A stretch of 64,000 nucleotides of DNA from a plasmid. The notes under the pieces are model-generated. The model saw only the letters and a program-made list of their open reading frames with translations. It was not told where the DNA came from and did no database searches. A program made the translations under genes and the position numbers. Where the stretch lies: the sequence record NZ_CP084013.1. The stretch is one strand, 5' to 3'. Below, piece after piece: positions 3,358 through 49,510 of the stretch; position 1 is the first letter of the stretch; the number at the start of each line of letters is the position of its first letter.

Positions 3358-3384
3358 TCTGTTATACTGAATATGTCCACATAA
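3358..3384 (+). promoter_or_regulatory. Repeated promoter cassette, copy a (extended -10 TGnTATACT plus conserved box GAATATGTCCACATAA)
   Basis: tcTGtTATACTgaatatgtccacataa. It is followed by aaagagga and an ATG at 3402. Confidence 0.6.
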
Positions 3385-3401
3385 AAACGAAAGAGGAAAC
3401 C

Positions 3402-3593
3402 ATGAAGCGCTACGCCATCAACTATGAGGAAACCTACTCAGGCACCTTCACCGTCGAACTCGACGACGACTCCACCGAACAGGATGCCATCAACGAACTC
3501 CTCAACAACGCCGACGAATACCGTCTAGGCGAACAGGTCGAACTCAGCGACAGTGACGCACAGGTCATCAAGACCGAAAATGTGGAGGACTGA
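3402..3593 (+). CDS. Small very acidic protein (63 aa)
   Basis: The RBS aaagaggaaacc is followed by ATG. The gene lies directly downstream of repeat copy a. The sequence is D/E-rich. Confidence 0.6.
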   Translation: MKRYAINYEETYSGTFTVELDDDSTEQDAINELLNNADEYRLGEQVELSDSDAQVIKTENVED

Positions 3594-3693
3594 CTCATGA
3601 CGGACACTATGGAACAGGTCACGGAAGATGTACTCGACGCTTTCAAGCGGAACGGCTGGATTGTCGTCGCGCCGAAGAACTGGAACTGACGAA

Positions 3694-4239
3694 ATGAAAA
3701 CACGCGACATCCTCATCACCGTCACCCGCATACTGCCGGGCTGGCATGTGTACAACGACCACCAGTTCGGACGCATCACCGCATTCGACCCTCAAGCGGG
3801 ATACGAGGTCACCGTCAACATTCCCGACAGCGACACCATCCGCATCGTCCGCACGCGGTACGAGCTTGTCGAGGATAACACCGTCCTCGATACAGCCGAC
3901 ATGGGCGAGGAGCAGGCATTGGACGAACTGGCCCGCCTGCTGGCTTCGCCCATGCCGCGCACCGACCGTCTCATGCGGTTGAAAGACAAGTTCGAGAAGA
4001 CCGCCGAATGGTGCCGGGACACGCTTGGCGACGAACAGGAGGCGAAGGATGTGGAAGACATGGCCGAACACTACATGCATGTGTGCGAAGCCTGCAACAA
4101 CAAATACTCCGGCCGACATGACCCGGTGTCCGTGTTCGAGGGGTGGCTGCTGGGCGAGGAACTCGGCACCCCGTATGAGACGCGCCGTCAGGCCGCGTCG
4201 CGCATGCTGAGCAACGTGCACCGACTGGACAAGGAGTGA
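3694..4239 (+). CDS. Hypothetical protein
   Basis: Internal ATG of ORF 3628..4239 (MKTRDILITV...). It contains CEACNNKYSGRHD. Confidence 0.5.
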   Translation: MKTRDILITVTRILPGWHVYNDHQFGRITAFDPQAGYEVTVNIPDSDTIRIVRTRYELVEDNTVLDTADMGEEQALDELARLLASPMPRTDRLMRLKDKFEKTAEWCRDTLGDEQEAKDVEDMAEHYMHVCEACNNKYSGRHDPVSVFEGWLLGEELGTPYETRRQAASRMLSNVHRLDKE

Positions 4240-4242
4240 ACC

Positions 4243-4866
4243 ATGTTGGACATCGAGAAGACGCTGCAATCCGTCCGCGACCTATTGGACAGGCTGGGCA
4301 AGGAAGGCGTGGAGTTCGCTCTGGTCGAATCGGAATACTCCGACTACGTAGCGGACATCCGCAACCCTAACAAGGTGTACGTGTTCCTTGAATGCTCGAT
4401 TCGTCCGAACGGCACCTTCGTCTGGCGGGATTACGACCATCATAAAGGAGTCTGCGACTTCGACGAGTTCCGCGTGCGGATAATCACCCTCACAGCGAAC
4501 AAATACCTCGACAAGGCGAAAGACAAGCGCAAACAGTGGGCGAGCCTGTGCGAAGGTACAGATACGCCCATGCCGGAGTCGCTGGCCGTCACCGTATCCG
4601 ACATGGAAGACAAGGCCAACCGTCTGAAAGCGTTGCTGGAACCCGACGACCCGCCACTGTTGGACGGGCGGGACATCGCAATCCTGAAAGAGCTTAAACC
4701 GTATGGCGTGGTCAAACCGGCGGAGGAATCGCAACGACTACGTGAGCTGGGCGTGCTGGAACGCAGATACTACATCGACCAAGTGTTCGACGCGCTGACC
4801 GACAAGGGCGAGAAGGCATTGGAATTCGCGTCGCACGTAGAACGGACGAAAAGGAGAACATCATGA
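4243..4866 (+). CDS. Hypothetical protein
   Basis: Six-frame ORF. It lies on the same strand as its neighbours and the stop-start junctions overlap. Confidence 0.5.
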   Translation: MLDIEKTLQSVRDLLDRLGKEGVEFALVESEYSDYVADIRNPNKVYVFLECSIRPNGTFVWRDYDHHKGVCDFDEFRVRIITLTANKYLDKAKDKRKQWASLCEGTDTPMPESLAVTVSDMEDKANRLKALLEPDDPPLLDGRDIAILKELKPYGVVKPAEESQRLRELGVLERRYYIDQVFDALTDKGEKALEFASHVERTKRRTS

Positions 4867-5201
4867 AAACAGCATCTTTCCACACGACCGCCCGCAAGGC
4901 GATACTCGCTACACTGCAAGCCAACCGAGACGACCTGCGCGTGCGCGATACGCGCGAATGGCGCTTTCTTACTGACGAGGAATTCCGACGGCTCGGCCAT
5001 GCGAAGCCGTCGGACGTGTCGTATGCGGGCGATCTGGACGACTACGGCATGTTCGACGGCGCCTGGCGTGCGGCCGTGGATTGCGGCGACGCGTTGCCTC
5101 ATGCGAGCGAATACAGCATATCCGGCATGCTCATCGCATTCGACGACAAGACCGTATGGGAGACGGTATGCGCCGGACTTGACCTGTTAGGCAAGGAATG
5201 A
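4863..5201 (+). CDS. Hypothetical protein
   Basis: ATGA overlap with the upstream gene. Confidence 0.5.
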   Translation: MKTASFHTTARKAILATLQANRDDLRVRDTREWRFLTDEEFRRLGHAKPSDVSYAGDLDDYGMFDGAWRAAVDCGDALPHASEYSISGMLIAFDDKTVWETVCAGLDLLGKE

Positions 5202-5213
5202 AAAGGAACCATC

Positions 5214-5483
5214 ATGAACGCGAACGAAACCTGCGAAGATTCAATCCACGGCCCGTACGAGCCGGATGACGTGGCTGACCACTGCGGCGGTTGCGGCATA
5301 CCGTTGTGTGAGGAGCATGCGAGGAAATGCCCCTGTTGCGGGCGCGTCAACTGCACGGACTGCAGCGAGATATGTGAGGCCTGCTGGCGTCTGGTATGCC
5401 GTGAGCACGCCAAGTGGAATCCCGAATACGCGCAATACGAATGCCCCGCATGCTACGACCGTTGGGATTGCGGGGAAAGGTAG
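5214..5483 (+). CDS. Cysteine-rich small protein (multiple CxxC, probable zinc-binding)
   Basis: CGGCG..C..H..C.CCG..C.DC...CEAC..C..H....CPAC. Confidence 0.5.
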   Translation: MNANETCEDSIHGPYEPDDVADHCGGCGIPLCEEHARKCPCCGRVNCTDCSEICEACWRLVCREHAKWNPEYAQYECPACYDRWDCGER

Positions 5484-5491
5484 AGAGGACG

Positions 5492-7241: not shown

Positions 7242-7894
7242 TTGAACGCATCACCGTGGAGACCAACGATGAGACCGGCAACAATCCGGTCGAATACGAT
7301 TGGGAGTTCGACCCGGACGGTGTCTGCCACATGACCGGTGACGGGGACATGCCCGCCGTCTTCGAGGGGTCCGCCGCCATCGTGGAGGCGTTCAACCATG
7401 TCGGCATGAGCATCGTGAGCGGGGAGCGGACACCGCTGAAGGACGGCGATCACGCACTGCTCGCCCTTCTTGCCGCCGTCCTCGCCACCCTCGTCCCGTT
7501 CGTGGAGGGGAAGGACGGCGACCAAGTGGGATTCATGATGGGCGATACATCGAACGGCTTCAACGTCAATATCACGTCGGCGGAGTTCCTGGCCTGCTGC
7601 CGCTCCATGTGGATCGGCGCAGATGTCCTCCGTGGATTCGGCCGATATCTGAACTTCCGTTGGAATACGGTCCGCGAGGCGTGGGTGGAAGCCGGTTCCG
7701 GTCTCGCGTTCATCGGGGCGGACAGTCAGGTGGCATACATGCTGGAGACCGCCACGTCGAAAGGCGACAGCATCCGCTTCGACCCCATGGAAGGCAAGGA
7801 GGAAACCGTCCAACTGTTCCGTCTCCTGTTGGAGACGGCGAAATGCGCGGACATCCCGGTCCGATTCGCAGGAGGCCTCCGACAAGGTGAATGA
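7238..7894 (+). CDS. Hypothetical protein
   Basis: ATGA overlap. RBS gaaggagcaatc precedes ATG (MIERITVE...). Confidence 0.5.
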   Translation: MIERITVETNDETGNNPVEYDWEFDPDGVCHMTGDGDMPAVFEGSAAIVEAFNHVGMSIVSGERTPLKDGDHALLALLAAVLATLVPFVEGKDGDQVGFMMGDTSNGFNVNITSAEFLACCRSMWIGADVLRGFGRYLNFRWNTVREAWVEAGSGLAFIGADSQVAYMLETATSKGDSIRFDPMEGKEETVQLFRLLLETAKCADIPVRFAGGLRQGE

Positions 7895-7989
7895 CGCACG
7901 AGATAACGACGATAGCATTCGTTCTAAGCAGCGAGACGGTAAAACGGAAGTTAGTCAACCAAACCGTATCCGGGAAGAAAGAAAGACTA

Positions 7990-9147
7990 ATGGGAAGACA
8001 TGCCGCCTCAAGACCCGGCCGACTCCGTCCTCAGCACAATACTGACGACATTTCGCTCCGGAATATTGAAGAGAACACCGTTCCTAAGAGAGAAGACAGA
8101 CAATCACAAGGAGTGGGTTACCGGCTGTTGCAATTGTTCGCAGGCATGTCGATTTTCCTCGCCATCATCCTAGTAATGCACGTCGGATGGGTATACATCG
8201 GCAACGGAATGGACCAGATCCACACCCAACAAACCATCGTCACCAACCAAGGATTCAAAACAGCCCAACCCACTAAAACCGACGGTTCAACCCGCATCGC
8301 CAAACCCCAAACCGGAGAACCACCCACCGAACCGGAACCCGAATACTCGACAGTGATCGGCTGGATGCGAATCCCCCGGTTCGGCACCGAATGGCAACGA
8401 GCCATCCAAGAAGGCACCGATCTGCAAGTCCTTGACAACTACGGTATCGGACACTATCAAGGAACCGTCATGCCCGGAAGCATCGGCAACAGCTCCTACG
8501 CCGGACACCGCACCCCCGGCGACCTAGGGCCGGCGGACACGTTGAAACCCGGGGATCCGATCATCATTCAGACAGCCGACCACTGGTACGTGTATGAAAT
8601 GCAATCATCTTGGATGACGACCCCCGATGATGCCGCCGTCATCGCCGACCAGACAGACCAAAAAGACGCGCGCCTCATCACGCTCACCACCTGTAAATAC
8701 TCGCTAGATGAACAGGACAGTCTGAGTGCTAGACTCATCGTCCGCGGACGGTTCAAATATTGGGCCAACACTGCTGACGGAATACCGCAAGAACTTGCCC
8801 CCAAACAATCAACTCCCATACAACAGGCAAAAGCCACCATCGCACGCAGTATCCAAAAAGCCAGCAAATACGCTCCAGTCAGCCAACTCCTGTTCACCGC
8901 AACACTAACAATCTGGTGCATCCTCACAGGCCTGTCATGGCTCATCTGGCACAAAGACCGCCAGAAGAAAACAACATCATGGAACCTCATGACACTAATC
9001 TGGCGCATCCAATCAGGCCCAATCATCCTACGCGCAACCACCTGCCTATTCTTCTGGGTAACGCTACTATTCGCCGAATGGGCATGGATCAGCCCACTAC
9101 TTTCCCAACCAATCACACTATCCACCGGTACCGCCACCCTAAACTAA
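7990..9147 (+). CDS. Class E-type sortase (transpeptidase) with an N-terminal TM segment and C-terminal hydrophobic segments
   Basis: The motifs AGHRT (conserved His), LITLTTCKY (TLxTC active-site Cys) and VRGRF (conserved Arg) occur in the canonical order. Confidence 0.6.
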   Translation: MGRHAASRPGRLRPQHNTDDISLRNIEENTVPKREDRQSQGVGYRLLQLFAGMSIFLAIILVMHVGWVYIGNGMDQIHTQQTIVTNQGFKTAQPTKTDGSTRIAKPQTGEPPTEPEPEYSTVIGWMRIPRFGTEWQRAIQEGTDLQVLDNYGIGHYQGTVMPGSIGNSSYAGHRTPGDLGPADTLKPGDPIIIQTADHWYVYEMQSSWMTTPDDAAVIADQTDQKDARLITLTTCKYSLDEQDSLSARLIVRGRFKYWANTADGIPQELAPKQSTPIQQAKATIARSIQKASKYAPVSQLLFTATLTIWCILTGLSWLIWHKDRQKKTTSWNLMTLIWRIQSGPIILRATTCLFFWVTLLFAEWAWISPLLSQPITLSTGTATLN

Positions 9148-9200
9148 AAACATCAGGCAATACGCAAAACCCGTACGCCAACAACAACCGGTGACAAAGA

Positions 9201-11241: not shown

Positions 11242-11835
11242 ATGTTGGTAAAGGAATGGGCCAGACTGGAAGGATTGCATCCGCAGACCGTGTGGAAATG
11301 GTGCCGTCAGGGCACCATGCCCGTTCCTGTGGAACAGACGCCGACCGGCATGTGGCTCATCCACGACCCGAAATACGAGACCATGCCGCAATCGAAAAGC
11401 ATGGAACCCCGCACCGTCTGCTATGCGCGAGTATCCAGCGGCGACCAAAAGAACGACCTGCAACGTCAAGCCGACCGGTTGAAGGCGTTCGCTCTGAACA
11501 TGGGTGTCGAGCGGCCGGAGGTGGTCATGGAGACCGGTTCAGGCATGGACGACAGGCGGCGCAAGCTCAACCGGCTATTGTCCGACCCGACCGTGGGCAC
11601 GCTGATCGTGGAGCACAGGGACAGGCTCGCCCGCATGAACGCGGGACTGGTGGAGAGCGCGTTGAAGGCGCAGGGACGCCGAATCATCGTGGTGGACGAC
11701 ACGGAGCTGGACGACGATCTGGTGCGCGACATGACCGAGGTGCTGACCTCGTTCTGCGCGAGACTGTACGGACGCCGCGCGGCCAAGCATCGTGCGGAGA
11801 AGGCGTTGGAGGCGATGCGCGATGAGCGCGTATGA
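11242..11835 (+). CDS. tnpA: IS607-family transposase TnpA (small serine recombinase with N-terminal MerR-like HTH)
   Basis: The motif YARVSSGDQKNDLQRQ carries the catalytic Ser. GSGMDDRRRKLNRLL is also present. Confidence 0.8.
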   Translation: MLVKEWARLEGLHPQTVWKWCRQGTMPVPVEQTPTGMWLIHDPKYETMPQSKSMEPRTVCYARVSSGDQKNDLQRQADRLKAFALNMGVERPEVVMETGSGMDDRRRKLNRLLSDPTVGTLIVEHRDRLARMNAGLVESALKAQGRRIIVVDDTELDDDLVRDMTEVLTSFCARLYGRRAAKHRAEKALEAMRDERV

Positions 11836-13144
11836 GGCCGTTAGGATTCGGCTCGACCCAACCCCACGGCAGACACGGCTGTTGGAATCCCATGCGGGCG
11901 GCGCGCGTTTCGCATACAATCTGATGCTCGCTCACGTCCAGCGCCAAATCTCCTTGGGTGAGAAACCGGACTGGACGTTGTACGCGATGCGCCGCTGGTG
12001 GAACGAGTGGAAGGACGAAATCGCCCCGTGGTGGCGGGAGAACAGCAAGGAGGCGTACAACAGCGCGTTTGAATGGCTGTCCCAAGCGTTGAGGAACTGG
12101 TCGGACAGCAGGAAGGGCAGGCGCGCGGGCCGCAGGGTGGGCTGGCCGAAATACAAGTCGAAACGCTCCGGTGTCCCGCGTTTCGCATACACGACCGGCA
12201 GCTTCGGCCTTATCGAGGACGACCCGAAGGCGTTGAAACTGCCACGCATCGGACGCGTGCACTGCATGGAGAACGCCACCGAACGCGTCCACGGCAGACG
12301 AATCGTGCGCATGACCGTCAGTCGCCATGCGGGCTTCTGGTATGCGGCCCTCACCGTCGAACGTCCCACCGAAAGCGTTCCCGCGAAAAACAGAAAACAG
12401 AAGAACCGTAATCGTCAGGTCGGCGTGGATTTGGGCGTCAGGACCCTCGCCACCCTCTCGGATGGCACCACGTTCCCCAATCCACGCAACTACGTCCGCA
12501 TGCAACGGAAACTCCGCCACGCCCAACAGGCGTTAAGCCGCCGCGACAGGGGCATGAGCCATGGATGCGGGTCGAAACGGTACAACAGGGCGTTGGGGCG
12601 CGTGCGCCGAATCCACGCCCGCATAGCCGCCCAACGAGCCGACAACATCAGCAAGCTCACCACGTGGCTCGCCGACAATTATTCCGACATCAGCATCGAA
12701 GACCTCAACGTGCAAGGCATGAGCCATAACAGGAGGCTTGCCAAACACATACTGGACGCGGACTTCCACGAGTTCCGCCGCCAACTGGAATACAAGACCG
12801 CACGCGCCGGCACGAGGCTCCATGTCATCGACCGCTGGTATCCAAGCTCGAAGACCTGTTCGAACTGCGGGACGGTGAAAGCCAAACTGCCCCTGTCCGA
12901 ACGCGTCTACCATTGCGGCAAGTGCGGACTTGTCATCGACCGTGATGTGAACGCGGCCATCAACATCCAAGTCGCCGGGAGTGCCCCGGAGACGTTAAAC
13001 GCGCGTGGAGGAAGCGTAAGACAGACCCGCCTTGAGTGCGGGACAATGCGGCATCCGGCGAAACGCGAACCAAGCGGCGGCGACAGTCGCGTGAGACTTG
13101 GAGCTGGTCTCGGCAACGAGGCCATGCAGATGACTCCGCTCTAG
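11822..13144 (+). CDS. tnpB: TnpB (OrfB) RuvC-like RNA-guided endonuclease homolog
   Basis: VGVDLGV (RuvC-I). IEDLNVQGM (RuvC-II Glu). Zinc finger CSNCG...CGKCG. DRDVNAAINI (RuvC-III). Confidence 0.85.
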   Translation: MSAYEAVRIRLDPTPRQTRLLESHAGGARFAYNLMLAHVQRQISLGEKPDWTLYAMRRWWNEWKDEIAPWWRENSKEAYNSAFEWLSQALRNWSDSRKGRRAGRRVGWPKYKSKRSGVPRFAYTTGSFGLIEDDPKALKLPRIGRVHCMENATERVHGRRIVRMTVSRHAGFWYAALTVERPTESVPAKNRKQKNRNRQVGVDLGVRTLATLSDGTTFPNPRNYVRMQRKLRHAQQALSRRDRGMSHGCGSKRYNRALGRVRRIHARIAAQRADNISKLTTWLADNYSDISIEDLNVQGMSHNRRLAKHILDADFHEFRRQLEYKTARAGTRLHVIDRWYPSSKTCSNCGTVKAKLPLSERVYHCGKCGLVIDRDVNAAINIQVAGSAPETLNARGGSVRQTRLECGTMRHPAKREPSGGDSRVRLGAGLGNEAMQMTPL

Positions 13145-15817: not shown

Positions 15818-15843
15818 CTATGTGGACATATTCAGTATAACAT
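15818..15843 (-). promoter_or_regulatory. Repeated promoter cassette, copy b
   Basis: The reverse complement reads atgTTATACTGAATATGTCCACATAg. Confidence 0.6.
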
Positions 15844-16049
15844 ATAAATGAAAAAATTATGCAAGGTTTGAAATAAAAAATCCCCCGATGCCATACGGCG
15901 CCGGAGGATTATTTGTCCACATAGAATGACGTTTCATAGAAACCAATGATCCTACGACAGCAAAAGCTGCAAGACCCAAAGTAGGTGAACTACTGGACAT
16001 GCTCACACAAGATGCTATGGCGCGGAAAAATCACTCGCCGTCCATAATT

Positions 16050-17440
16050 TTTTAGGCAGGGTACCACGACCCTTGTGGTCGTGGGTGAATGCCTTTCCTT
16101 TCCACTAACATTATGATATAATGTTTTTTATTGGAGGTGAAGCATATGGTGGAACTCGCATTGACCATGAAAGTCAAGCTCACGACCAACAAACACGAGT
16201 CTGAAGCCCTTAACCGCCTATGTGACAATTACACCTCCTGTTGCAACGAAGTATCCGATTGGATTGGAGAACACCACACCCTCAGCCAGAGGAAAATCAA
16301 CGAGGCTGTCTATCACCCGCTACGCGACAAATACGGACTGTTGGCCCAGATGACCCAATCTTCGATACGGCGGGTCATCGCGTCCTACAAGGCAATTCAC
16401 TCGCGCATGGAACGCCGGAACGGAGAAAACCCCAAGAGAAAGAGGACGGCATACTATTCCACCAGACCAAAGTACTCGTCCGCCGGTGTTGACCTGCTGT
16501 GGAACCGCGACTACTCCTATTCGCCCATGACGGGAATGTTCAGCCTTCCCGTCATGGGCGGGAGAATCAAAGTGAAAGCCCAATGGAAGGGAACCCCGGA
16601 CGAATACCGTACGGCACGTTTCGGTACCGCCCGACTGATATCGAAACGAGGCAAATGGTACCTGCATATTCCCATCATCCTACAGGTTCCCGACCCAACC
16701 CCAAGCCCCAAAAACATAGTGGGCGTGGACTTGGGCATCCGAATGCTCGCCACCAGTTATGACGGCGAAACCACCGTCTTCCAACATGGAGGGGAGGTGA
16801 AAAGCAAGCGCGGCAAATACAAGCGGCTCCGTCAACAGTTGCAGAAACGCGGCACCCGAAGCGCTCGCAGACGACTCAAGACCATAGGCGACAGAGAAAA
16901 CCGTTGGATGACTGATGTGAACCATCAGGCGTCTAAGGCACTCGTCAACCATTACGACAGGGATACGATGTTCGTTCTCGAAGACCTTACGGGAATCCGC
17001 AATGCGACCGAACAGGTCAGGGTCAAGGACAGGTATGTTCAGGTCAGTTGGAGTTTCCACCAATTCCGGCAGATGGTCGAATACAAGGCGAAACGCAACG
17101 GTCAGAAAGTCGTGTTCGTTGACCCGGCCTACACAAGCCAGACCTGCCCGAAATGCGGGAAAATCCGCAAAGCCAACCGTGACAAGAAACGCCACCTGTA
17201 TGTCTGCCGCAACTGCGGATACCGGTCCAACGACGACCGGATAGCCGCGATGAACCTGCGACACAAAGGCTACGACCTTTTGAGCTCGCAGTACGCCGCC
17301 AGCATGACTGACGGCGTAAGGGTGCAGTCAACCACCCTATGATGTTCCGTCAATTAAAGGTAGGAGAACGGTTACAGCCGTTCACTGGCACTACCGGACA
17401 GGGACAAGCCGCAATGCTCGTCATTGCGGTCGTTGACATA
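16050..17440 (+). mobile_element. IS1341-type (IS200/IS605 family) element carrying only tnpB
   Basis: It is a solo tnpB. A candidate subterminal hairpin lies upstream (ccacgaccCTTGTggtcgtgg, about 16058-16078). A second lies downstream (ccgcaatgCTCGTcattgcgg, about 17403-17423). Boundaries are inferred. Confidence 0.45.
16131..17342 (+). CDS. tnpB: TnpB (OrfB) RuvC-like RNA-guided endonuclease homolog
   Basis: IVGVDLGIRMLAT, FVLEDLTGI, CPKCGKIRK...CRNCGYRS and NDDRIAAMNL. Confidence 0.85.
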   Translation: MEVKHMVELALTMKVKLTTNKHESEALNRLCDNYTSCCNEVSDWIGEHHTLSQRKINEAVYHPLRDKYGLLAQMTQSSIRRVIASYKAIHSRMERRNGENPKRKRTAYYSTRPKYSSAGVDLLWNRDYSYSPMTGMFSLPVMGGRIKVKAQWKGTPDEYRTARFGTARLISKRGKWYLHIPIILQVPDPTPSPKNIVGVDLGIRMLATSYDGETTVFQHGGEVKSKRGKYKRLRQQLQKRGTRSARRRLKTIGDRENRWMTDVNHQASKALVNHYDRDTMFVLEDLTGIRNATEQVRVKDRYVQVSWSFHQFRQMVEYKAKRNGQKVVFVDPAYTSQTCPKCGKIRKANRDKKRHLYVCRNCGYRSNDDRIAAMNLRHKGYDLLSSQYAASMTDGVRVQSTTL

Positions 17441-17507
17441 CAATTCCTCGTCCGCGATCTCCTCGCTTCCCTCGAACACGATCGCGCCTTCATCGTCACG
17501 ATGCTCG

Positions 17508-17801
17508 TCAAACCACGCTTTGGCCTCCTTTCCTGCTGGTCTTAGTAGGAGGGGTTTCTTTGAGCCACATCTCGAGGAGTTCTGGTGAGTTGATTTCGGC
17601 AGACAGCTTTTCGACGTATGCCTTGTCGCGCTTGTACTGGCAGTTGGGGCACCGTTGGCAGCGTTCCATCCAGCTTTTCTGGCAGGCGCTGATGTCCTCG
17701 TAGACGCGCTTGTGCCCGCAAATGAAGGTGACTTCGCGGGTGGCGAGGATGTCGTGGTCGAGGTCGTTGGTTTCGTGTTGTTCTTCGATGGTGAGTGCCA
17801 T
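17508..17801 (-). CDS. Small zinc-ribbon protein
   Basis: CGHKR...CQRCPNCQ. Its ATG is preceded by the RBS gaaagaggaaacc and by repeat copy c. Confidence 0.55.
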   Translation of the reverse strand: MALTIEEQHETNDLDHDILATREVTFICGHKRVYEDISACQKSWMERCQRCPNCQYKRDKAYVEKLSAEINSPELLEMWLKETPPTKTSRKGGQSVV

Positions 17802-17823
17802 TGGTTTCCTCTTTCATTATCTT

Positions 17824-17849
17824 TATGTGGACATACTCAGTATAACAGA
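17824..17849 (-). promoter_or_regulatory. Repeated promoter cassette, copy c
   Basis: The reverse complement reads ctgTTATACTGAgTATGTCCACATAA. Confidence 0.6.
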
Positions 17850-41418: not shown

Positions 41419-41444
41419 TTTATGTGGACTTCTTCAGTATAACA
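41419..41444 (-). promoter_or_regulatory. Repeated promoter cassette, copy d-left (left arm of the divergent inverted pair)
   Basis: The reverse complement reads ttgTTATACTGAAgaaGTCCACATAA. Confidence 0.55.
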
Positions 41445-41461
41445 ACCATATTGTATTTTAC

Positions 41462-41487
41462 ATGTTATACTGAATATGTCCACATAA
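41462..41487 (+). promoter_or_regulatory. Repeated promoter cassette, copy d-right (right arm of the divergent inverted pair)
   Basis: atgTTATACTGAATATGTCCACATAA. It is separated from the left arm by 17 bp. Confidence 0.6.
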
Positions 41488-41515: not shown

Positions 41516-42001
41516 ATGCAACCCATACAAGACGTCACAGACGCACGAAAGACCTACACCCTATACGAGTGTGAAAAATGCGGAAGCCTGCGACTCGAAA
41601 GATCCGGCAAGCCCATCACCAAGTGCGCCTACTGCGACAACCTCTCCCTAAAACAGAGATTCCTCTCCGCACTGATCTCCATCGTCCACGAAGCCACATA
41701 TAAAATCCCAAACCCAAACAACACCGGAATCGTCCAAAACAAGGCAGACACAAAACTGCCCGGGAGTGTCGTCCAAGTCTTCGTGGATAACCCGGAAACC
41801 TACTGCACAACGAAAATTCAGCTCGGAACCACATCCATCGACTACTCCTATGATTGCACATCAGGGGACATTCGTATCGTTGCGAAAAATTGGGATCCAT
41901 TCGACTTGGAAAATGCCGACCTCGGTACGGGATGGCATATCCGACTGCTGGTGCAGACATGGCGCAACGAAATTGCCAAGCGAATGGAACTGACGGCGTG
42001 A
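41516..42001 (+). CDS. Hypothetical protein with an N-terminal zinc ribbon
   Basis: YECEKCGS.....CAYCDN. The RBS gaaaaccaaaggaaa precedes the ATG. Confidence 0.5.
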   Translation: MQPIQDVTDARKTYTLYECEKCGSLRLERSGKPITKCAYCDNLSLKQRFLSALISIVHEATYKIPNPNNTGIVQNKADTKLPGSVVQVFVDNPETYCTTKIQLGTTSIDYSYDCTSGDIRIVAKNWDPFDLENADLGTGWHIRLLVQTWRNEIAKRMELTA

Positions 42002-42783: not shown

Positions 42784-42942
42784 CCGAAAAGACTGGCAGC
42801 CCGAGGACACGCAAGTGGAGACCGCGGCTATGGCGCTACGTGCCCAGCAAATGCGCCTGTGGAATCTCGTCGAGGACAGTGCGACTGTCGACCGCTGCTG
42901 GCAGCAGAAACGGATTAAGGAATCGTTGAAAGGTCAGGACAA

Positions 42943-43154: not shown

Positions 43155-43180
43155 CTGCTATACTGAATATGTCCACATAA
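43155..43180 (+). promoter_or_regulatory. Repeated promoter cassette, copy e
   Basis: cTGcTATACTGAATATGTCCACATAA. It lies 24 bp upstream of the exonuclease ATG. Confidence 0.6.
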
Positions 43181-43204: not shown

Positions 43205-43795
43205 ATGAGCTACTGGGACAAATACCGAAGCGACGATCCACGACGCATCCCGCCGCTGGAGGCGCCATTGCTCGACTACATCGTGCTCGACACCGAAACC
43301 ACCGGCCTCAACCCGGAAGATGGCGCGAAACTCATCGAAATCGGCGCCGTGAAAGTCAAGAACGGACGAATCGTCGACACCTACAGCCAACTCATCAACC
43401 CGCAAATGATCGTCCCGCCACACATCACGCAATTGACGGGAATCACCACTTACGACGTGAGCGGCAAACCGACTGTCAAGCATGCGATGAAAGAGTTCGA
43501 ACGGTGGCTGGGATTCGAAACGCCCTTCCTCGCACACAACGCGACGTTCGATTTGAAATTCCTCGACTGGGCCACGGCGGAAACCTGGCCGAATCGCCCC
43601 CTGTTCGACCACCCATTCCTGGATACCTTGGAAATGAGCCGTGACATCCATCCGGAAATTCGCCATCACAAGGTCGCGGATCTGATCAAACGCTATCACG
43701 TGGCAGACGTGGAACAGCATCGAGCTCTTTCCGACGCAATGCAAGAGCAAGCCTTGTACCAGATTATGTGCAAGGAGTATTTCCTCGGAGCCTGA
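43205..43795 (+). CDS. DEDDh 3'-5' exonuclease (DnaQ / Pol III epsilon-like)
   Basis: VLDTETTGL (Exo I), FLAHNATFDLKFL (Exo II) and HRALSDA (Exo III). Confidence 0.75.
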   Translation: MSYWDKYRSDDPRRIPPLEAPLLDYIVLDTETTGLNPEDGAKLIEIGAVKVKNGRIVDTYSQLINPQMIVPPHITQLTGITTYDVSGKPTVKHAMKEFERWLGFETPFLAHNATFDLKFLDWATAETWPNRPLFDHPFLDTLEMSRDIHPEIRHHKVADLIKRYHVADVEQHRALSDAMQEQALYQIMCKEYFLGA

Positions 43796-43867
43796 TTTGC
43801 AGTTGTTGTGTTTGCGGTCGAATGCGGCTATAATTTATTTTACATATTATGATTGGAGGTGTTTGGT

Positions 43868-44491
43868 ATGCGCACGTATCTTCGGAGGGCCGAGGCGGCG
43901 AACCGTCTGCACATATCGACCACCGCGTTCAAAACGCTCGTAGCCGAGGGGAAAATCAAATACGAGCTGTCGCCCGGCGGGCAGAAGGTGTATGACCCGA
44001 AGGAAATCGACCGTTTCGCCGCCCGCGTTCAGGGTAGGGAGCCGGCGGAAGGCGTTCTCGTGTTCTACGTGCGGGACAGCGAGGGCAACACGACGCGAAT
44101 GAGAAATCAGGAGGAGCGGCTAGAGAAGGCGTATGGCGCTCCGTCAAAAGTGTACCGCGACCGCGCCTCCGGATTGAATGAGAACCGCAAGGGACTGGCA
44201 CGACTGCTCGACGACGCGGAGGAGGGACGTTTCGACCGGGTGGCCGTCACCGCCAAAGACAGGTTGAGCAGGTTCGGCGCATCTTATCTACAACGGCATC
44301 TCGCGTTCCTCGGCATCGACCTGATTGTGTTGGACGGGGAACGGGAGAAGGGGATGATGGACGAACTCATGGACGACTTCATGGCTTTGCTCGCCTCGTT
44401 CTCCGGACGGTTCTACAAGCTGCGCAGCATCGAACATGAGAAACTGCTGCTCGACCGGGCGCGCGAAAGACTGGAGGAGCGTGGAGCATGA
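43868..44491 (+). CDS. tnpA: IS607-like TnpA (serine recombinase family, divergent catalytic region)
   Basis: VLVFYVRDSEGN. RASGLNENRKGLARLL matches GSGxxxxRxxLxxLL of the other two TnpA. GGAGGT RBS. Confidence 0.55.
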   Translation: MRTYLRRAEAANRLHISTTAFKTLVAEGKIKYELSPGGQKVYDPKEIDRFAARVQGREPAEGVLVFYVRDSEGNTTRMRNQEERLEKAYGAPSKVYRDRASGLNENRKGLARLLDDAEEGRFDRVAVTAKDRLSRFGASYLQRHLAFLGIDLIVLDGEREKGMMDELMDDFMALLASFSGRFYKLRSIEHEKLLLDRARERLEERGA

Positions 44492-46146
44492 AAACCGGTG
44501 AAATCGCCTGCGCTGTTCCAGACCTGCACGACTACCGTCTATACGACCACAGGACAGGCGAACCGTTGGACCCGGTGGAGGCCGAAACGCTGCTCTGGCT
44601 GCACTTGGACCATTGCCGGCAATGCCAGAACCGGATGATTCACGACCCGAGGAACCGGAATCTCAAACGGGGCGGAAATGCTGGGAGAGGCAACGAATGG
44701 GCGAGGAAGAACGTCGCCTGCACAAGCCTGCCCTCCAAGTTCAGAAACCTCTCCCATCAGAACCGCGTCAATCAGACCGAGGCCGCCCGACTGCTCCTCG
44801 CATGGCGGGAACGCGAGGACATCGCCACCGCAATCGACGCCATCGGCTGGGAGAAGGCCACCTACGGGAACGTGCAGAAACGTTTGAGCCGGGACATCGA
44901 CCGTGAACTGTTCACGAACGTGCTCAACAGCGGCGGTCATCCAAGCCTGCCCACCGTGGAGCGCACGCAGTTCCCCTACGCGTACTCGAACAACAACTCC
45001 TGCGGCATGTACGTCATCGACCAGCCCGCCGGGGTCATCCGATACGAGCGGATGGCCGTCTACGACAGGTTCGTGGACGTTGAGATATACGCGCCGCACA
45101 TCATGCGCCTGCATCCGAACCTGACGAAGGTGTCCCGGCCCACGCTACGGTGGAACGGGGACTGCGTGACATGGGATGTCATCGTCTTCGAACCAAAACC
45201 CCGCAAAGAGGATGTGAACAAGGTGAGCCACGTCGTCGGCTTCGACCTGAACGCCGACTGGCATGGTGGCATCAGCGGGGCGCGACTCTCCTACAACGGG
45301 ACGGTGAGCCGAGAACTCGTAGCCGGCATCGACACACGCCGCCAGCAAACCGTGTTGGAGGAGCTGTATGTCCAATACCAGCGGTGTTTGAAGAAGCTCG
45401 ACCGGCTCATGCCATGGCAGCGGCCACACGACCCGGACGACCCGCAGCAAGTGGCAGCCCACCCCGAATGGCGGCGACTCTACGAACAGTCGCTCAACCT
45501 CCGGGATAAGATGTACCGCATCAAAACCCTGTTGGACTGGCGGTACGCGCACGACATCACCGACCATGCCAAACCCGGCGAACTCATCGCCGTGGAGAAA
45601 CTTTCCCCGTTCGATGCGGCAGGACGCGTCGAGTTCCGGCACGGCAGCCAACTGGAAAAACTGGAACACGTCGCCTCCAAGACCGGACAGCGCGTGGTGC
45701 AGGTCAACCCGGCGCACACGTCCGCCACCTGCCCGTGGTGCGATACCGTCAACAAGGTCGGCAAAGCCAGACAATACCGGTGCGCAGGATGCAGACGTGA
45801 CATCCCCCGCGACTACGGGTCTGGCGTCAACATCGCCAAACGCGGCGCACGCTATCTCGGACACAAAAACGTCCGACCTACCCCGCCGAAGGGACACGCC
45901 ACACCCAAACGTCCACCGGTCAGACACAAACGACCGGACGAAAAAACACGAGAACTTCTCACACAGATAACGTCAGGAACCGGCAAGGGGCCGGAATCCT
46001 TATGGGCCAAGACCACTCCACTGGAATGGCACATCCCATCGACGGCGACTATCGAGAATACAAGGAACCGACTAGCCCTCGCAAACCAGCGAGACCGGGC
46101 AGCAACGGGGTTACGGCAGAAACCGCAACCACCCCATTCTCGATAA
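44488..46146 (+). CDS. tnpB: TnpB-like RuvC nuclease (552 aa)
   Basis: VVGFDLNAD. LIAVEKLS. CPWCD...CAGC. RDYGSGVNIA. Confidence 0.7.
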   Translation: MKTGEIACAVPDLHDYRLYDHRTGEPLDPVEAETLLWLHLDHCRQCQNRMIHDPRNRNLKRGGNAGRGNEWARKNVACTSLPSKFRNLSHQNRVNQTEAARLLLAWREREDIATAIDAIGWEKATYGNVQKRLSRDIDRELFTNVLNSGGHPSLPTVERTQFPYAYSNNNSCGMYVIDQPAGVIRYERMAVYDRFVDVEIYAPHIMRLHPNLTKVSRPTLRWNGDCVTWDVIVFEPKPRKEDVNKVSHVVGFDLNADWHGGISGARLSYNGTVSRELVAGIDTRRQQTVLEELYVQYQRCLKKLDRLMPWQRPHDPDDPQQVAAHPEWRRLYEQSLNLRDKMYRIKTLLDWRYAHDITDHAKPGELIAVEKLSPFDAAGRVEFRHGSQLEKLEHVASKTGQRVVQVNPAHTSATCPWCDTVNKVGKARQYRCAGCRRDIPRDYGSGVNIAKRGARYLGHKNVRPTPPKGHATPKRPPVRHKRPDEKTRELLTQITSGTGKGPESLWAKTTPLEWHIPSTATIENTRNRLALANQRDRAATGLRQKPQPPHSR

Positions 46147-46191
46147 CCCTAATCCCGGGCATACTGGATTCTATTCTTTCCTGATATTTTG

Positions 46192-46218
46192 CTTGTTAAA
46201 CTGAATATGTCCACATAA
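46192..46218 (+). promoter_or_regulatory. Repeated promoter cassette, copy f
   Basis: cTTGTTAAACTGAATATGTCCACATAA. It lies immediately after the tnpB stop. Confidence 0.55.
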
Positions 46219-46246
46219 CACCAGAGCAGAAAGGCATGACCTTGAA

Positions 46247-46576
46247 GTGTGCGAAAAACTAACAGTACACGTGCGACTCATTCCCTACGGTAACCTGCGA
46301 GATGCGGCAAAGCTCCACCATTACGAGCTGCGTCGCAGAAACATGGTCAGGGATGCCGGCAAGGAGCCAAATCCATTCGTCTTGGAACGCTGGATGGTCA
46401 ATTATGCCCGGCATGCGTTGACCGATTACGACCAGCAGTGCCATGACTTGGATCAAGATAGGTATGTCGAGCTTCGGACGGCGACATTGGACGCCATAGC
46501 CGACACGTATCCGCCATTGAGACATGAATGCGAACGTCAGAAAAGAATCCAGAATCCAGAAAAGGAGCCCGAGTGA
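46247..46576 (+). CDS. Hypothetical protein. The start is uncertain.
   Basis: ORF downstream of copy f. GTG start at 46247, or a later ATG. Confidence 0.35.
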   Translation: MCEKLTVHVRLIPYGNLRDAAKLHHYELRRRNMVRDAGKEPNPFVLERWMVNYARHALTDYDQQCHDLDQDRYVELRTATLDAIADTYPPLRHECERQKRIQNPEKEPE

Positions 46577-46902: not shown

Positions 46903-47175
46903 TTGGGTGTCGGGTTGGCTGATGTGGCCGCTGAATATGTCCGATTGCACCGGGTCGAGCGGCAGTCTTTGCAGATTCGCAGTGTTAATCGCGTCGAGTT
47001 GACTGTGATACAGAATTTGTGGGCGGATAGGGTCGGGAAAGCTCGATTGGATATCCGTTCCGCTCCGGAGGTGGTGATGCGTGCGATCGAGCGGTCGAAG
47101 CGTGGTCACGAGCTTTTCGGTCGGGTTCGTGAGACTCCCGTATTGGTTGTGTACGAACTGAAGACACTTACCTGA
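46903..47175 (+). CDS. Hypothetical protein (TTG start)
   Basis: 90-aa ORF in the same orientation. Confidence 0.3.
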   Translation: MGVGLADVAAEYVRLHRVERQSLQIRSVNRVELTVIQNLWADRVGKARLDIRSAPEVVMRAIERSKRGHELFGRVRETPVLVVYELKTLT

Positions 47176-47199
47176 CATACTGAATATATTCACATGTGG
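47171..47199 (+). promoter_or_regulatory. Repeated promoter cassette, degenerate copy g
   Basis: ccTGaCATACTGAATATaTtCACATgtgg. It lies 13 bp upstream of the ATG at 47212. Confidence 0.45.
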
Positions 47200-47211
47200 T
47201 AAGATTGTTCC

Positions 47212-47694
47212 ATGACATCGCAAACTGAACCCTTCAAGATAGACGGACTTACCTTGATGCTACGAATAGGCCACGCCCCACGAGGGCGAATCTCCTATTT
47301 TAGCCCGCAAACCACCATCGAAGAATTCCTCCGTCATGCCGCCGAGCACGAGGGAAGACTGCTGTTCGTCGGCAACTTTAAATCATTGCGAAACAAAATA
47401 GGCTTTAATTATTTGCTGCTCTGGTCACCCCAAAGCGCAATCAAACTCGTTGGAACGGTGACCAATTTCGGAGAGGCATACAATCCAAAAACCTGGAATC
47501 CGAAATCCCACTATCAGGCACCATTCCCATGGGGAAGAACGCCTGCCAACTACTGGTTGGCGTTGGACAATGTGCAGCAATTGGGAGATTTCGATCCGGA
47601 CAAGTTCGAGAGATTGGGCTACAACGCCAAAAAGATATCGCTGGCGGATGAGATGGAAACAAATGCAGCCACGTTCATAATCCGCCCTATTTAA
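47212..47694 (+). CDS. Hypothetical protein
   Basis: 160-aa ORF downstream of copy g. Confidence 0.45.
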   Translation: MTSQTEPFKIDGLTLMLRIGHAPRGRISYFSPQTTIEEFLRHAAEHEGRLLFVGNFKSLRNKIGFNYLLLWSPQSAIKLVGTVTNFGEAYNPKTWNPKSHYQAPFPWGRTPANYWLALDNVQQLGDFDPDKFERLGYNAKKISLADEMETNAATFIIRPI

Positions 47695-47801
47695 CCTTCC
47701 TCGCCAAGGATTCCCCCGCCTCTAAGCGAAGCGTAGGCGGGGGATGAATTGGCGTATCTATATATGTTATACTGTAATCAGTCGTATATGTTATAAACGA
47801 G

Positions 47802-48209
47802 GTGATTGCAGTGGAATTGGAGTCGAATCATCATTCGGTGTTCCTGTTGTATTATCATCTCGTGCTCGTCGTGAAATACCGTCGCAAGGTGTTCGACGAC
47901 ATCGTTTCGGCGCGTGCGCGTGAGATATTCGAGTACATCGCACCCAAGTATGGGATAACCGTTGAGGAATGGAACCACGACATGGACCACGTGCACGTAT
48001 TGTTCCGTGCCCAGCCGAAGAGCGAGTTGAGCAAGTTCATCAACGCTTACAAGAGCGCGTCGAGTCGTCTGCTCAAGCAGGAGTTTCCGCAGATTCGGCA
48101 GAAACTGTGGAAGGAGTATTTCTGGAGCCGCAGCTTCTGCCTACTGACCACAGGAGGCGCGCCAATCGAAGTCATCCGCAAATACATCGAGAACCAAGGC
48201 AGGAAGTAA
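47802..48209 (+). CDS. tnpA: IS200/IS605 TnpA (Y1 HUH transposase)
   Basis: YHLVLVVKYRRKVF. HUH motif HDMDHVHVLF. Catalytic Tyr region KSASSRLLKQEF...YFWSRSF. Confidence 0.8.
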   Translation: MIAVELESNHHSVFLLYYHLVLVVKYRRKVFDDIVSARAREIFEYIAPKYGITVEEWNHDMDHVHVLFRAQPKSELSKFINAYKSASSRLLKQEFPQIRQKLWKEYFWSRSFCLLTTGGAPIEVIRKYIENQGRK

Positions 48210-48223
48210 GGAGGTGAACCATC

Positions 48224-49345
48224 ATGCAGGTGAAACGTCATTGCGCGGTCAAGTACCGCATGTACCCGAACAGGGCTCAGGCGGCATTGATTGACCGCAC
48301 CATCGGTTGTGCGAGGTTCATCTACAATCAGATGCTTGAAACCCGCATCGGCACCTATAAGGCTACGGGTAAGTCGTGCAATCCGACTCCCGCCCAGTAC
48401 AAGGACAGGTATCCGTTCCTGCGTGAGGTGGACAGCCTCGCACTGTGCAACGCCCAATTGAACGTGGCGAAGGCGTACAGGAACTTCTTCCGCGACCCCA
48501 AGCACATCGGCTTCCCGAAGTACAAGGCGAAGCATCGCAATCGTCAGACCTACACGACGAACAACAGCAATAACAACGTCACCCTCGATGAAGGAGGCAG
48601 GCATCTCAAACTACCGAAAGTAGGGATTGTGCGCGTCCGCCAGCATAAACGCATACCCGAAGACTGGAAACTGAAGAGCGTGACCATCGAGCATTGCAAA
48701 AACGGCGAATACACGGCGACGATACTGTTCGAGTACGAGACCCAAGCACTCGAACCCGTCCGACCCGTGCATATCGTCGGATTGGATTACTCCTCCCACG
48801 GCCTGTACGTGTCCAGCGACGGCGAACGAGCCGACTATTCGCGTTTCTACCGGCGGATGGAGCCACGGCTGATGCGCGAGCAACGTAGACTCAGCCACAT
48901 GGTAAAAGGGTCCGGTAATTGGGTGAAACAGAAGCGGCGCATCGCCAAGCTCGCCGCCAAGGTCGGGAACCAGCGAGCCGACTTCCTGCATAAGACGGCC
49001 AACCGGCTCGCCGCCCGATATGATTGCGTCGGCGTGGAGGACTTGGACATGAAGAACATGAGCCAATCCCTCACACTCGGCAAAAGCACGATGGACAACG
49101 GGTACGGCATGTTCCGCACCATGCTCGCATACAAGCTCGAACGGCAAGGCAAGCAGCTGGTCACGGTAGACAGGTTCTACCCGTCCAGTCAACTATGCTC
49201 CGATTGCGGATACCGCAATAAGGATACGAAGGACCTGCATATCCGCGAATGGACATGCCCTGACTGTGGCGTTTGGCATGACAGGGACGTGAACGCCGCG
49301 ACCAACATCATGCACGAAACACGACGACTCATGCAGGAACGATAA
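48224..49345 (+). CDS. tnpB: TnpB RuvC-like RNA-guided endonuclease homolog
   Basis: IVGLDYSS. GVEDLDMKNM. CSDCGYRN...CPDCGVWH. DRDVNAATNI. Confidence 0.85.
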   Translation: MQVKRHCAVKYRMYPNRAQAALIDRTIGCARFIYNQMLETRIGTYKATGKSCNPTPAQYKDRYPFLREVDSLALCNAQLNVAKAYRNFFRDPKHIGFPKYKAKHRNRQTYTTNNSNNNVTLDEGGRHLKLPKVGIVRVRQHKRIPEDWKLKSVTIEHCKNGEYTATILFEYETQALEPVRPVHIVGLDYSSHGLYVSSDGERADYSRFYRRMEPRLMREQRRLSHMVKGSGNWVKQKRRIAKLAAKVGNQRADFLHKTANRLAARYDCVGVEDLDMKNMSQSLTLGKSTMDNGYGMFRTMLAYKLERQGKQLVTVDRFYPSSQLCSDCGYRNKDTKDLHIREWTCPDCGVWHDRDVNAATNIMHETRRLMQER

Positions 49346-49480
49346 CAAAAAACTTACGAGAACCGTGGGGCGCACGGGAATAGCCTGTAGACACTGACTC
49401 GGATACGAGCCTTGAGCAGGAAGCCCCCACCTCAGATCGCGAAGCGGTCAGGTGGCGGGAGCACGTCACCCTCTGTCGTG

Positions 49481-49510
49481 GCTGTTATACTGAAAACATC
49501 TGCATAAAAG
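49481..49510 (+). promoter_or_regulatory. Repeated promoter cassette, degenerate copy h
   Basis: gcTGTTATACTGAAaAcaTCtgCATAAAAG. It lies 9 bp upstream of the ATG at 49519. Confidence 0.45.

Follow-up and report, generated by a model that had tools for sequence, protein, structure and literature searches.

Introduction

The closest described counterpart of the sequence element analysed here is a 34 bp motif of the Bifidobacterium breve megaplasmid pMP7017, which we find again in a 64,000-nucleotide stretch of plasmid DNA (sequence record NZ_CP084013.1; this whole stretch is called the window below). The motif was published with the transcriptome of pMP7017 by Dineen, Bottacini, O'Connell-Motherway and van Sinderen (2024, Microb Biotechnol 17:e14405; PMC10832533). 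Its consensus, AWAYATGY-TATACT-GAATATGTCCACATAAAAWA, lies over the −10 region and within 60 bp of start codons. There are 19 copies on pMP7017 (13 of them further copies), predicted to serve 56 genes or approximately 24% of the coding capacity, and the authors speak of a "presumed pMP7017-specific regulon" and of a likely transcription-factor site overlapping the −10 region. The motif precedes comparable genes in pMP7017 homologues and is missing from bifidobacterial chromosomes. RNA-seq of pMP7017 in B. breve UCC2003 showed transcription from motif sites, several of which ranked among the units with the strongest transcription in established cells bearing the plasmid; the transcription starts were RNA-seq approximations and the regulator was not identified. 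Megaplasmids of this type, the only known conjugative plasmids of Bifidobacterium, were detected in about 10% of mined gut microbiome samples, mostly from infants and/or mothers (PMC10832533).

Repeated promoter-associated or gene-start-associated sites are known from other mobile elements. On plasmid p576 of Bacillus pumilus, the autoregulated protein Reg576 represses four establishment-gene promoters, and this repression is lifted for a short time after transfer (Val-Calvo et al., 2018, NAR 46:11910; PMC6294495). The stoperators of Cluster A mycobacteriophages (L5 gp71 type; PMC9283540, PMC6550527) lie in intergenic regions irrespective of promoters and block elongation. The start-associated sequences (SAS) of Cluster K mycobacteriophages have no assigned function; a reader encoded by the host or by the element has been suspected (PMC3203893).

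By megablast, the window is 96–99% identical to plasmid p1 of Bifidobacterium longum DS1566 (NZ_CP146883.1) and approximately 93% identical to pMP7017 (NZ_KM406416.1); judged by these matches it is part of a B. longum megaplasmid of the pMP7017 family. Its repeated cassettes are members of the published pMP7017 regulon motif. They agree with it in sequence (AWAYATGY TATACT GAATATGTCCACATAA AAWA), plasmid family, position and interpretation, and every testable defining feature was found. A literature search for the motif sequence returned Dineen et al. (2024; PMC10832533) as the sole paper carrying it. Because motif, position and regulon reading were published there, the motif and its interpretation as a regulon are already known. 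New here are the bipartite anatomy, the evidence of selection on a downstream box, flanks that differ between lineages and another large clade, in which the box is a variant one; the earlier paper does not describe the bipartite, asymmetric anatomy, boxes without a promoter or the divergent variant clade. As the best account of the cassette we propose, at an even chance, a strong host-type promoter at a fixed distance from an asymmetric site of approximately 10 bp for a putative element-encoded DNA-binding repressor. A repressor is favoured because of the analogy with the experimentally solved Reg576 system and the position of the box at the start site.

Results

Motif copies in the window

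The window was searched for TATACTGAATATGTCCACATAA with up to three mismatches, and 100 dinucleotide-preserving shuffles served as the null model. Seven matches were obtained, at 3363 (+), 15839 (−), 17844 (−), 41441 (−), 41466 (+), 43159 (+) and 46197 (+), each with at most two mismatches; the chance expectation from the shuffles was 0. These near-perfect copies have the form TGnTATACT-GAATAT-GTCCACATAA, and none departs from the 22 bp core at more than two positions. A search with the 5′ half of the motif recovered the same seven sites and two degenerate copies at 47176 (+; TGACATACTGAATATATTCACATGT) and 49486 (+; TGTTATACTGAAAACATCTGCATAA), both of which are kept in the closest relative. 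A position weight matrix (PWM) trained on the seven copies gave the degenerate ones scores of 19 and 24, compared with 43–48 for the other copies. All nine copies listed in the original prediction, which had been made from the sequence alone, therefore exist, seven of them near-perfect and two degenerate. The truncated copy that it placed near 15912 is real as well and consists of the box TTTGTCCACATAG at 15913 (+) without a −10 hexamer.

In nine of nine copies TGn stands 5′ of the hexamer, as had been noticed before, and most copies of the relatives have it too. The claim that a purine-rich ribosome-binding site (RBS) and the start codon of an open reading frame (ORF) or operon follow each copy also held for all nine: the start codon (ATG, TTG or GTG) lies 33–50 nt past the first T of TATACT, with a purine-rich Shine-Dalgarno sequence in between. 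The 3′ AAWA of the published consensus is found in most window copies.

Anatomy of the cassette

The cassette is a bipartite unit made of TGnTATACTG, five variable bases and GTYCACAYAA. The information profile shows near-invariance at TG, at TATACT and at the G behind it; the 5 nt linker is low in information, AT-rich but variable (AATAT, GATAT, AGAAT, AATGT, AATAC), and GTCCACATAA is near-invariant again. When the PWM was scanned over two whole plasmids, pMP7017 showed 22 strong and 6 weaker sites, so that our count of 22–28 copies exceeds the 19 published, and NZ_CP146883.1 showed 21 strong and 4 weaker sites. On both plasmids the copies occur on both strands all round the molecule and are always co-directional with the next gene, the start of which is within about 60 bp, as in the window.

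A −35-like TTG at a spacer of 16–18 bp was present in 11 of 24 pMP7017 copies and in 32 of 59 copies of a variant clade described below as family 2; shifted controls gave 2–6 and 2–14, respectively. The corresponding counts were 1 of 8 in the window and 4 of 21 on NZ_CP146883.1, and a generic two-hexamer promoter scan missed the window copies. The window copies thus differ from the published motif in a weaker −35 region and also in their upstream flank, which varies with the lineage: pMP7017 has AWAYA-TGY and the B. longum plasmids have TTTGYC-TGT. Such lineage-specific flanks imply that within each plasmid the paralogous copies have evolved in concert. The extended −10 architecture assigned to the copies beforehand stood as far as TGn is concerned; the architecture is not purely extended −10, since many copies of the relatives have a −35-like TTG. 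Taken together, TGnTATACT, the −35 enrichment in the relatives, the fixed orientation and the fixed start-codon distance argue that the motif is a promoter. The cassettes appear to range from full −35/−10 to extended −10 promoters, and because about half of the pMP7017 copies carry the −35 TTG, their reader is likely to be the host sigma-A polymerase and not a dedicated enzyme.

The 25 bp unit might alternatively be the promoter of an element-encoded polymerase or sigma-like factor (T7-like), or a single-stranded DNA promoter (Frpo type) firing on the incoming strand. We consider this highly improbable. A long contiguous motif that includes the start site is reused 20–30 times per element, as would be expected for a dedicated polymerase, and IMG/VR catalogues these elements as viral; however, a textbook extended −10 with TTG enrichment at −35 points elsewhere, positions −5 to −1 are variable, unlike those of single-subunit polymerase promoters, and no polymerase or sigma gene is annotated on the two complete plasmids, for which the gene tables are incomplete. 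The divergent pair of copies at 41420–41487 would form a hairpin in single-stranded DNA, but it is the only self-complementary pair; the other copies are single, without a hairpin partner, and their leaders are unstructured. In addition, copies are found on both strands all round the plasmid, only one strand of which is transferred, and the published RNA-seq of established cells already suggests that the double-stranded promoter is active (PMC10832533).

With the hexamer placed at −12 to −7, the spacing puts the box at about +1 to +10, and we infer that the conserved purine opening the box is +1. On each plasmid the box would then cover about −1 to +10 of 20–28 promoters. The box itself is asymmetric. 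In the apparent dyad TATGT-cc-ACATA the right arm is fixed, and the left arm falls in the linker and varies freely; the family-2 variant TTGT-TC-ACAC is not a dyad. A dimeric palindromic operator was rejected on the unequal conservation of the half-sites and the loss of the dyad in family 2; the idea of a classical dyad operator is not supported. A conserved leader structure had also been envisaged for the box. Leaders of 50 nt fold no better than their shuffles (mean z +0.3 to +0.4) and no Rfam family covers them; the predicted 5′ untranslated regions (UTRs) are unstructured, and the idea of a conserved leader structure was rejected. An antisense promoter, in which TGGACA from the box's complementary strand would serve as −35, was rejected too, as the generic scan showed it inconsistently, at two copies only.

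Distribution of the motif and a divergent variant clade

The search of related genomes that had been suggested as a check was carried out on several collections. The pattern TATACTGnnnnnGTCCACATA was scanned against one genome each of 185,579 species, which yielded 39 isolated single matches in unrelated taxa and no multi-copy locus. These single matches are at chance level; we estimate that a pattern of 17 specified bases would match approximately 70 times by chance in 596 Gb. IMG/VR contained more than 118 motif loci, many with several copies. Most were covered over more than 80% of their length by blastn matches to the reference plasmids at approximately 75–96% identity and are megaplasmid relatives filed as viral; megaplasmid relatives carry 20–30 motif copies each. 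The motif is thus multi-copy on relatives of the megaplasmid and restricted to this element family. The pMP7017-family megaplasmids that are catalogued as viral (IMG/VR loci L048–L165) are contigs of 40–170 kb with phage-like genes, including those for a tail-tip lysozyme, DUF2815 and DnaB.

A chromosomal single site, TGTTATACTG(A/G)ATGCGTCCACATAC, occurs at orthologous positions in Bifidobacterium biavatii (L046, 4085–4109) and Bifidobacterium ramosum (L038, 7881–7905). In B. biavatii it lies approximately 20 nt upstream of a 275-aa ORF, and the neighbouring long ORF is glycoside-hydrolase-like by eye. The site may be a chance match or a host promoter of like design. A chromosomal origin of the box was dismissed; this one site near a glycoside hydrolase is insufficient to argue for a host regulator.

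About 18 IMG/VR loci, on contigs of 113–217 kb, had little nucleotide similarity to the reference plasmids, yet contained many copies of the variant TGYTATACTGGAATTGTTCACACAA; we refer to them as family 2. A scan with this variant returned at least 120 IMG/VR loci, and the family-2 set comprises L053, L055, L059, L062, L064, L091, L104, L106, L112, L116, L132, L137, L146, L148, L158 and L176–L284. Among the matches listed, family 2 has more than 200 copies of TATACTGGAATTGTTCACACAA, and its lineage-wide box variant is GTTCACACAA, in more than 200 contexts. Family-2 elements are 100–217 kb long with a GC content of about 0.53 (e.g. IMGVR_UViG_3300045988_173162 and 3300029653_000083). They share DnaB, RepA, exonuclease, sortase, ATP-grasp and type IV secretion system proteins with pMP7017 at approximately 30–65% identity, and a few mosaic segments are approximately 85% identical in nucleotide sequence to B. 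longum plasmids. In PLSDB there was no full-length relative of family 2; the known megaplasmids of B. longum and B. breve gave only short mosaic matches, covering at most 26% of the query. A comparison with phage records gave no match. On these sequence grounds family 2 is apparently an uncultured, divergent clade of the same kind of element.

The box is conserved separately from its surroundings

The exonuclease promoters of the window, pMP7017 and family 2 precede proteins that are approximately 55% identical. Flank, linker and UTR have diverged between them, and TATACT and GTCCACAYA have been kept at the same spacing. Because hexamer and box survive at these orthologous promoters where flank, linker and UTR do not, the box is evidently under selection independently of its flanks.

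This comparison also bears on the possibility that there is no dedicated trans-acting factor, the 25 bp being an optimised core promoter plus initial transcribed sequence that was spread by duplication and homogenised by gene conversion. The approximately 25 copies could then also serve as short homologies for module shuffling. Such a history would account for the lineage-specific flanks shared by the copies within a plasmid (AWAYA or TTTGYC), which are a signature of concerted evolution, for the RBS stretch GAAAGAGGAAAC common to many copies and for the heavily rearranged gene order around the copies in different plasmids, and it is in line with the high steady-state expression of the motif promoters (PMC10832533). 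Homogenisation alone, however, would let the consensus drift, whereas the box has been kept across lineages whose proteins are only 30–55% identical and linker, flank and UTR have not. To our knowledge, bacterial RNA polymerase does not read positions +2 to +10 sequence-specifically. Intact boxes, moreover, persist where the −10 hexamer is gone. We therefore regard a purely cis-acting unit as quite unlikely.

The spacing between box and −10 hexamer is nearly constant. Among the matches listed, 201 of 211 unique family-2 box contexts (>95%) had a TAnnnT hexamer at the fixed spacing and 10 did not. The same spacing was found for 7 of 8 boxes in the window and for 22 of 31 and 19 of 25 boxes on the two whole plasmids. 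One intact box without a −10 hexamer is at an intercistronic site common to pMP7017 (60373) and NZ_CP146883.1 (155616). At pMP7017 107051 (about 9051 of L003) a perfect GTCCACATAA, followed by AAAAAGGAAAACCCATG, is located inside an XRE-type helix-turn-helix (HTH) gene (106877–107530) before an internal RBS and ATG. This box could mark an internal start giving an isoform without the HTH; it is not conserved in NZ_CP146883.1. The promoter-less intact boxes imply that the box has a role of its own, which would be compatible with a roadblock-type DNA site or with a signal at the RNA level.

An RNA-level role is part of a further reading, in which the box acts after initiation. With the box starting at about +1, all transcripts of the regulon would have GUCCACAUAA at their 5′ end. 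This shared 5′ end, or the same sequence on the non-template strand exposed during promoter escape, might be read by a factor that sets the stability of the mRNA, its translation or the processivity of transcription in the long small-gene operons. Such a factor could be an RNA-binding protein, a small RNA or an RfaH/LoaP-like or ConAn-like antitermination factor. The rigid distance between −10 and box (in >95% of more than 200 contexts among the matches listed), the asymmetry of a box that is always co-directional with transcription, the always short distance to the start codon, and the A-rich stretch, RBS and ATG that still follow the promoter-less boxes (pMP7017 60373 and 107051; NZ_CP146883.1 155616) would all suit such a signal, although the leaders lack conserved secondary structure and the start site on which the argument depends is placed by spacing. 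Known ops- and put-type signals sit further downstream than +1 to +10, which also speaks against it. High steady-state expression (PMC10832533) would fit an enhancing signal better than a repressing one; on the other hand, NusG-, sigma- and RNA-chaperone-like genes are absent from the PGAP annotation of the two full plasmids, a table that is incomplete. On balance we hold action after initiation to be rather unlikely. Likewise unlikely is the more specific proposal that a megaplasmid protein recognises the box, as a signal peculiar to this family, during initiation or shortly afterwards, either on the nascent 5′ end or on the non-template strand, with the GTCCACATAA and GTTCACACAA clades as specificity groups that co-evolved with their readers.

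Genes behind the motif and candidate regulators

Of the first genes behind the window copies, two encode zinc-ribbon proteins, one a DnaQ-like exonuclease, one an acidic protein of 63 aa and one a membrane protein of 55 aa; another encodes an unknown of 136 aa and is followed by a metallophosphoesterase gene, and two more products are unknowns. Pfam and PHROGs searches on these first genes were uninformative except for the exonuclease and the phosphoesterase. On the whole plasmids, genes behind the copies include ssb, DUF2786, DUF2815, cas operons, an RNA-ligase operon and a pentapeptide-repeat operon, amongst others. Such a combination of genes is typical of functions in establishment, in defence and accessory to replication.

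We clustered the ORFs that come first after the motif in 389 instances from the window, both plasmids and family 2. The DnaQ-like exonuclease was the only first gene common to all of these sources. A regulator that is itself encoded by a first gene and thereby autoregulated was rejected, because no regulator-like first gene was common to all lineages among the 389 instances. A family of 310-aa proteins (pMP7017 p0103) is found behind many family-2 copies and is missing from the window and from NZ_CP146883.1. By eye its N-terminus is winged-helix-like and the remainder HEAT-type-repeat-like; no Pfam domain was assigned.

A 217-aa XRE-type HTH protein is encoded divergently from the box promoter of the DUF2815 gene in both plasmids. 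No homologue was detected in family-2 fragments by tblastn, and a pattern search led to close relatives only. Other regulator candidates are a WhiB protein and an ImmA-associated protein, neither of which is linked to the box or is a first gene common across lineages. The PGAP annotation of the two full plasmids, whose gene table is incomplete, lists no sigma, polymerase, NusG-like or RNA-chaperone-like gene.

Type I-E CRISPR-Cas systems (cas6e, casA, casB, cas7, cas5 and cas1; cas3 is not annotated) are located at 65226–73557 of pMP7017 and 161364–169914 of NZ_CP146883.1, outside the window, with arrays of roughly a dozen or more repeats. In both plasmids a motif copy begins straight after the last CRISPR repeat. 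CRISPR self-targeting of the motif was discarded, as the printed spacers of pMP7017 and NZ_CP146883.1 are unlike the motif by eye, no formal match search having been made.

Individual cassettes and neighbouring elements

The first copy (3360–3384, +; PWM 47.8) is a perfect motif, TGTTATACTGAATATGTCCACATAA, and precedes a 63-aa acidic ORF (3402–3593) at the head of an operon that extends up to a sortase gene (7891–9147). The second (15818–15842, −; PWM 45.0) has a box ending in ...CACATAG and serves a 55-aa membrane ORF (15801–15634) and downstream genes; a terminator-like hairpin lies before it. The promoter-less relic (15913–15960, +) is directly behind a bidirectional terminator and consists of the box followed by a decayed UTR, RBS and ATG. 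This segment recurs at 61636–61794 of NZ_CP146883.1. The third copy (17823–17847, −; PWM 45.0) has the linker GAGTAT and drives a 97-aa zinc-ribbon ORF (17801–17508), towards which a solo TnpB gene (16131–17342, +) converges. An insertion sequence (IS) near the truncated copy had been postulated. The solo TnpB does adjoin it, but the truncated copy is a decayed cassette relic and not an IS end.

Copies four and five form a back-to-back divergent pair (41420–41487) with −10 hexamers 24 bp apart in a 25 bp inverted repeat. The fourth (41420–41444, −; linker GAAGAA; PWM 42.7) precedes a 136-aa ORF (41405–40995) and the metallophosphoesterase gene (40970–40272); the fifth (41463–41487, +; PWM 47.8) is a perfect motif in front of a 161-aa zinc-ribbon ORF (41516–42001). 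With so short a distance between the hexamers, polymerase must be an object of competition between the two promoters. The arrangement is kept in NZ_CP146883.1 and in many IMG/VR relatives.

The sixth copy (43156–43180, +; PWM 45.0), with TGC as its TGn, is followed by the gene of the DnaQ-like 3′–5′ exonuclease (43205–43795), and the seventh (46194–46218, +; PWM 45.4), with TAAACT as −10, by a 109-aa ORF (46247–46576). The degenerate eighth copy (47173–47197, +; PWM 19.0) has a 160-aa ORF (47212–47694) downstream; it is identical in NZ_CP146883.1 and still weaker in pMP7017. The ninth (49483–49507, +; PWM 23.9) has a degenerate box and stands before an operon with genes for a VirB4-like AAA_10 ATPase (50407–54828) and a lysozyme/CHAP hydrolase (55662–56963); its pMP7017 orthologue keeps an intact GTCCACATAA.

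If the motif were an IS terminal repeat or a miniature inverted-repeat transposable element, the same flanks would be expected at each copy. The flanks proved to be unrelated, each copy precedes a different gene, and the segment beside the solo TnpB gene is not repeated at other TnpB copies; the motif is therefore not an IS terminal repeat. An IS200/IS605 element (approximately 47811–49345; tnpA about 47811–48209, tnpB 48224–49345) is located between the eighth and ninth copies and not, as first described, between the seventh and eighth. A 2.35 kb IS607-type insertion (43796–46148) separates the sixth from the seventh copy and encodes a MerR-HTH/serine recombinase (43853–44491) and a 552-aa TnpB (44488–46146). 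It is missing from the otherwise 99% identical NZ_CP146883.1, which instead has an IS605 element near window position 42870. Window 15873–17719 and NZ_CP146883.1 61636–63193 contain different TnpB elements at adjacent positions, and the 97-aa zinc-ribbon gene, intact in the window, has lost its 3′ part in NZ_CP146883.1. At the 3′ end of an IS607-family TnpB ORF (11792–13144), the Rfam family Transposase-2 RNA (RF03015) matches 13060–13128 (+) with 84.8 bits, presumably as the scaffold of the element's guide (omega) RNA. The VirB4-like ATPase (+) has 1473 aa with a Hom_end domain at residues 938–1031, compared with approximately 885 aa for its pMP7017 orthologue, which suggests that it contains an intein.

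Discussion

In the repressor model, each copy would be a self-contained expression cassette of the pMP7017-family megaplasmid. TGn-TATACT-G, sometimes together with a TTGnnn −35 element 16–18 bp away, would act as a strong housekeeping sigma-A promoter and the five variable AT-rich bases as the melting part of the bubble. Transcription would start at the conserved purine opening the box and proceed into the first gene through a short leader that is unstructured, rich in A and equipped with a strong Shine-Dalgarno sequence. The box would be a separate cis element, and its most probable reader is a trans-acting factor that the megaplasmid itself encodes. By binding the asymmetric site of approximately 10 bp in the path of the polymerase, this factor would damp all approximately 25 promoters together. 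The result would be a common, self-limiting expression of about a quarter of the plasmid genes (SSB, DNA methyltransferases, restriction-alleviation, DNA-mimic-like and exonuclease functions, CRISPR-Cas and unknowns) and a burst of expression when the plasmid enters a factor-free cell. The proposal that a promoter with a downstream box drives co-regulated small-gene operons on a conjugative element, from which this work started, fits the measured anatomy and the pMP7017 publication; no repressor was found for it among the candidates considered.

Several observations weigh against a repressor. As far as half-site conservation tells, the asymmetry of the box and its unconserved apparent dyad exclude the commonest design of a dimeric operator. 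The rigid distance between box and −10 hexamer (>95%, among the matches listed) is unusual for operators and fits a signal at the RNA 5′ end or on the non-template strand equally well. Motif promoters are highly transcribed in established cells (PMC10832533), so that any repression would be partial; tight repression is unlikely, because RNA-seq shows several of them to be highly active in plasmid-bearing cells. The search for a cognate regulator found none: among the clustered first genes only that of the exonuclease is common to all lineages, and the XRE-type HTH protein is a weak candidate, with no homologue in the available family-2 fragments. Finally, the transcription start is placed by spacing and the published starts are approximate. 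Some weight beyond the four models considered here is left for mechanisms that we have not thought of.

The analogy with p576 lies in a Gram-positive conjugative plasmid with a short repeated site at the promoters of anti-restriction and establishment genes, for which a plasmid repressor and a burst after transfer are the model. It ends at the scale, four promoters on p576 compared with approximately 25 here, and at the operator. On p576 two dimers of an autoregulated ribbon-helix-helix repressor bind cooperatively to a dual heptamer, TTATCCC; here a single asymmetric 10-mer would occupy +1 to +10, as judged by spacing, and neither a ribbon-helix-helix protein nor another regulator is tied to the box. 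Of what is expected from repressor operators in general, a short site repeated over many promoters of one element was found, and a dyad or direct repeat was not. The IncP regulators KorA/KorB and the IncW/IncN regulators ArdK/KorA with CUP are further precedents, in which one plasmid regulator controls many backbone or leading-region promoters through a repeated promoter-containing sequence in a coordinated, self-limiting manner. The operators of KorA/KorB are palindromic, however, CUP repeats are several hundred bp long, the regulators are known and autoregulated, and host phylum and sequences differ from those of the present box.

Stoperators resemble the box in being short asymmetric sites of Actinomycetota mobile genomes that are present in dozens per genome and oriented with transcription. 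Both have lineage-specific site variants, which implies co-evolution with a cognate factor. They differ in that more than 95% of the boxes, among the matches listed, are locked to a −10 hexamer at one spacing. SAS elements likewise are repeated, asymmetric and of one orientation, and they immediately precede many gene starts in the non-structural region of a mobile genome from actinobacteria, but they overlap the RBS 3–7 bp from the start codon and have no tie to a promoter, whereas this box keeps a distance of 15–35 nt from the start codon and is linked to the −10 hexamer.

If the box were such a family-specific signal, recognised during initiation or shortly afterwards, giant actinobacterial plasmids would have a novel tag by which about a quarter of their transcripts are set apart as plasmid-derived. 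For biotechnology, the cassette is a possible compact, strong and perhaps switchable promoter for Bifidobacterium engineering. One shared cassette appears to control about a quarter of the plasmid genes, including those for anti-restriction, SSB and CRISPR-Cas as well as many small unknowns, and finding its reader would explain how these megaplasmids establish themselves and limit their cost.

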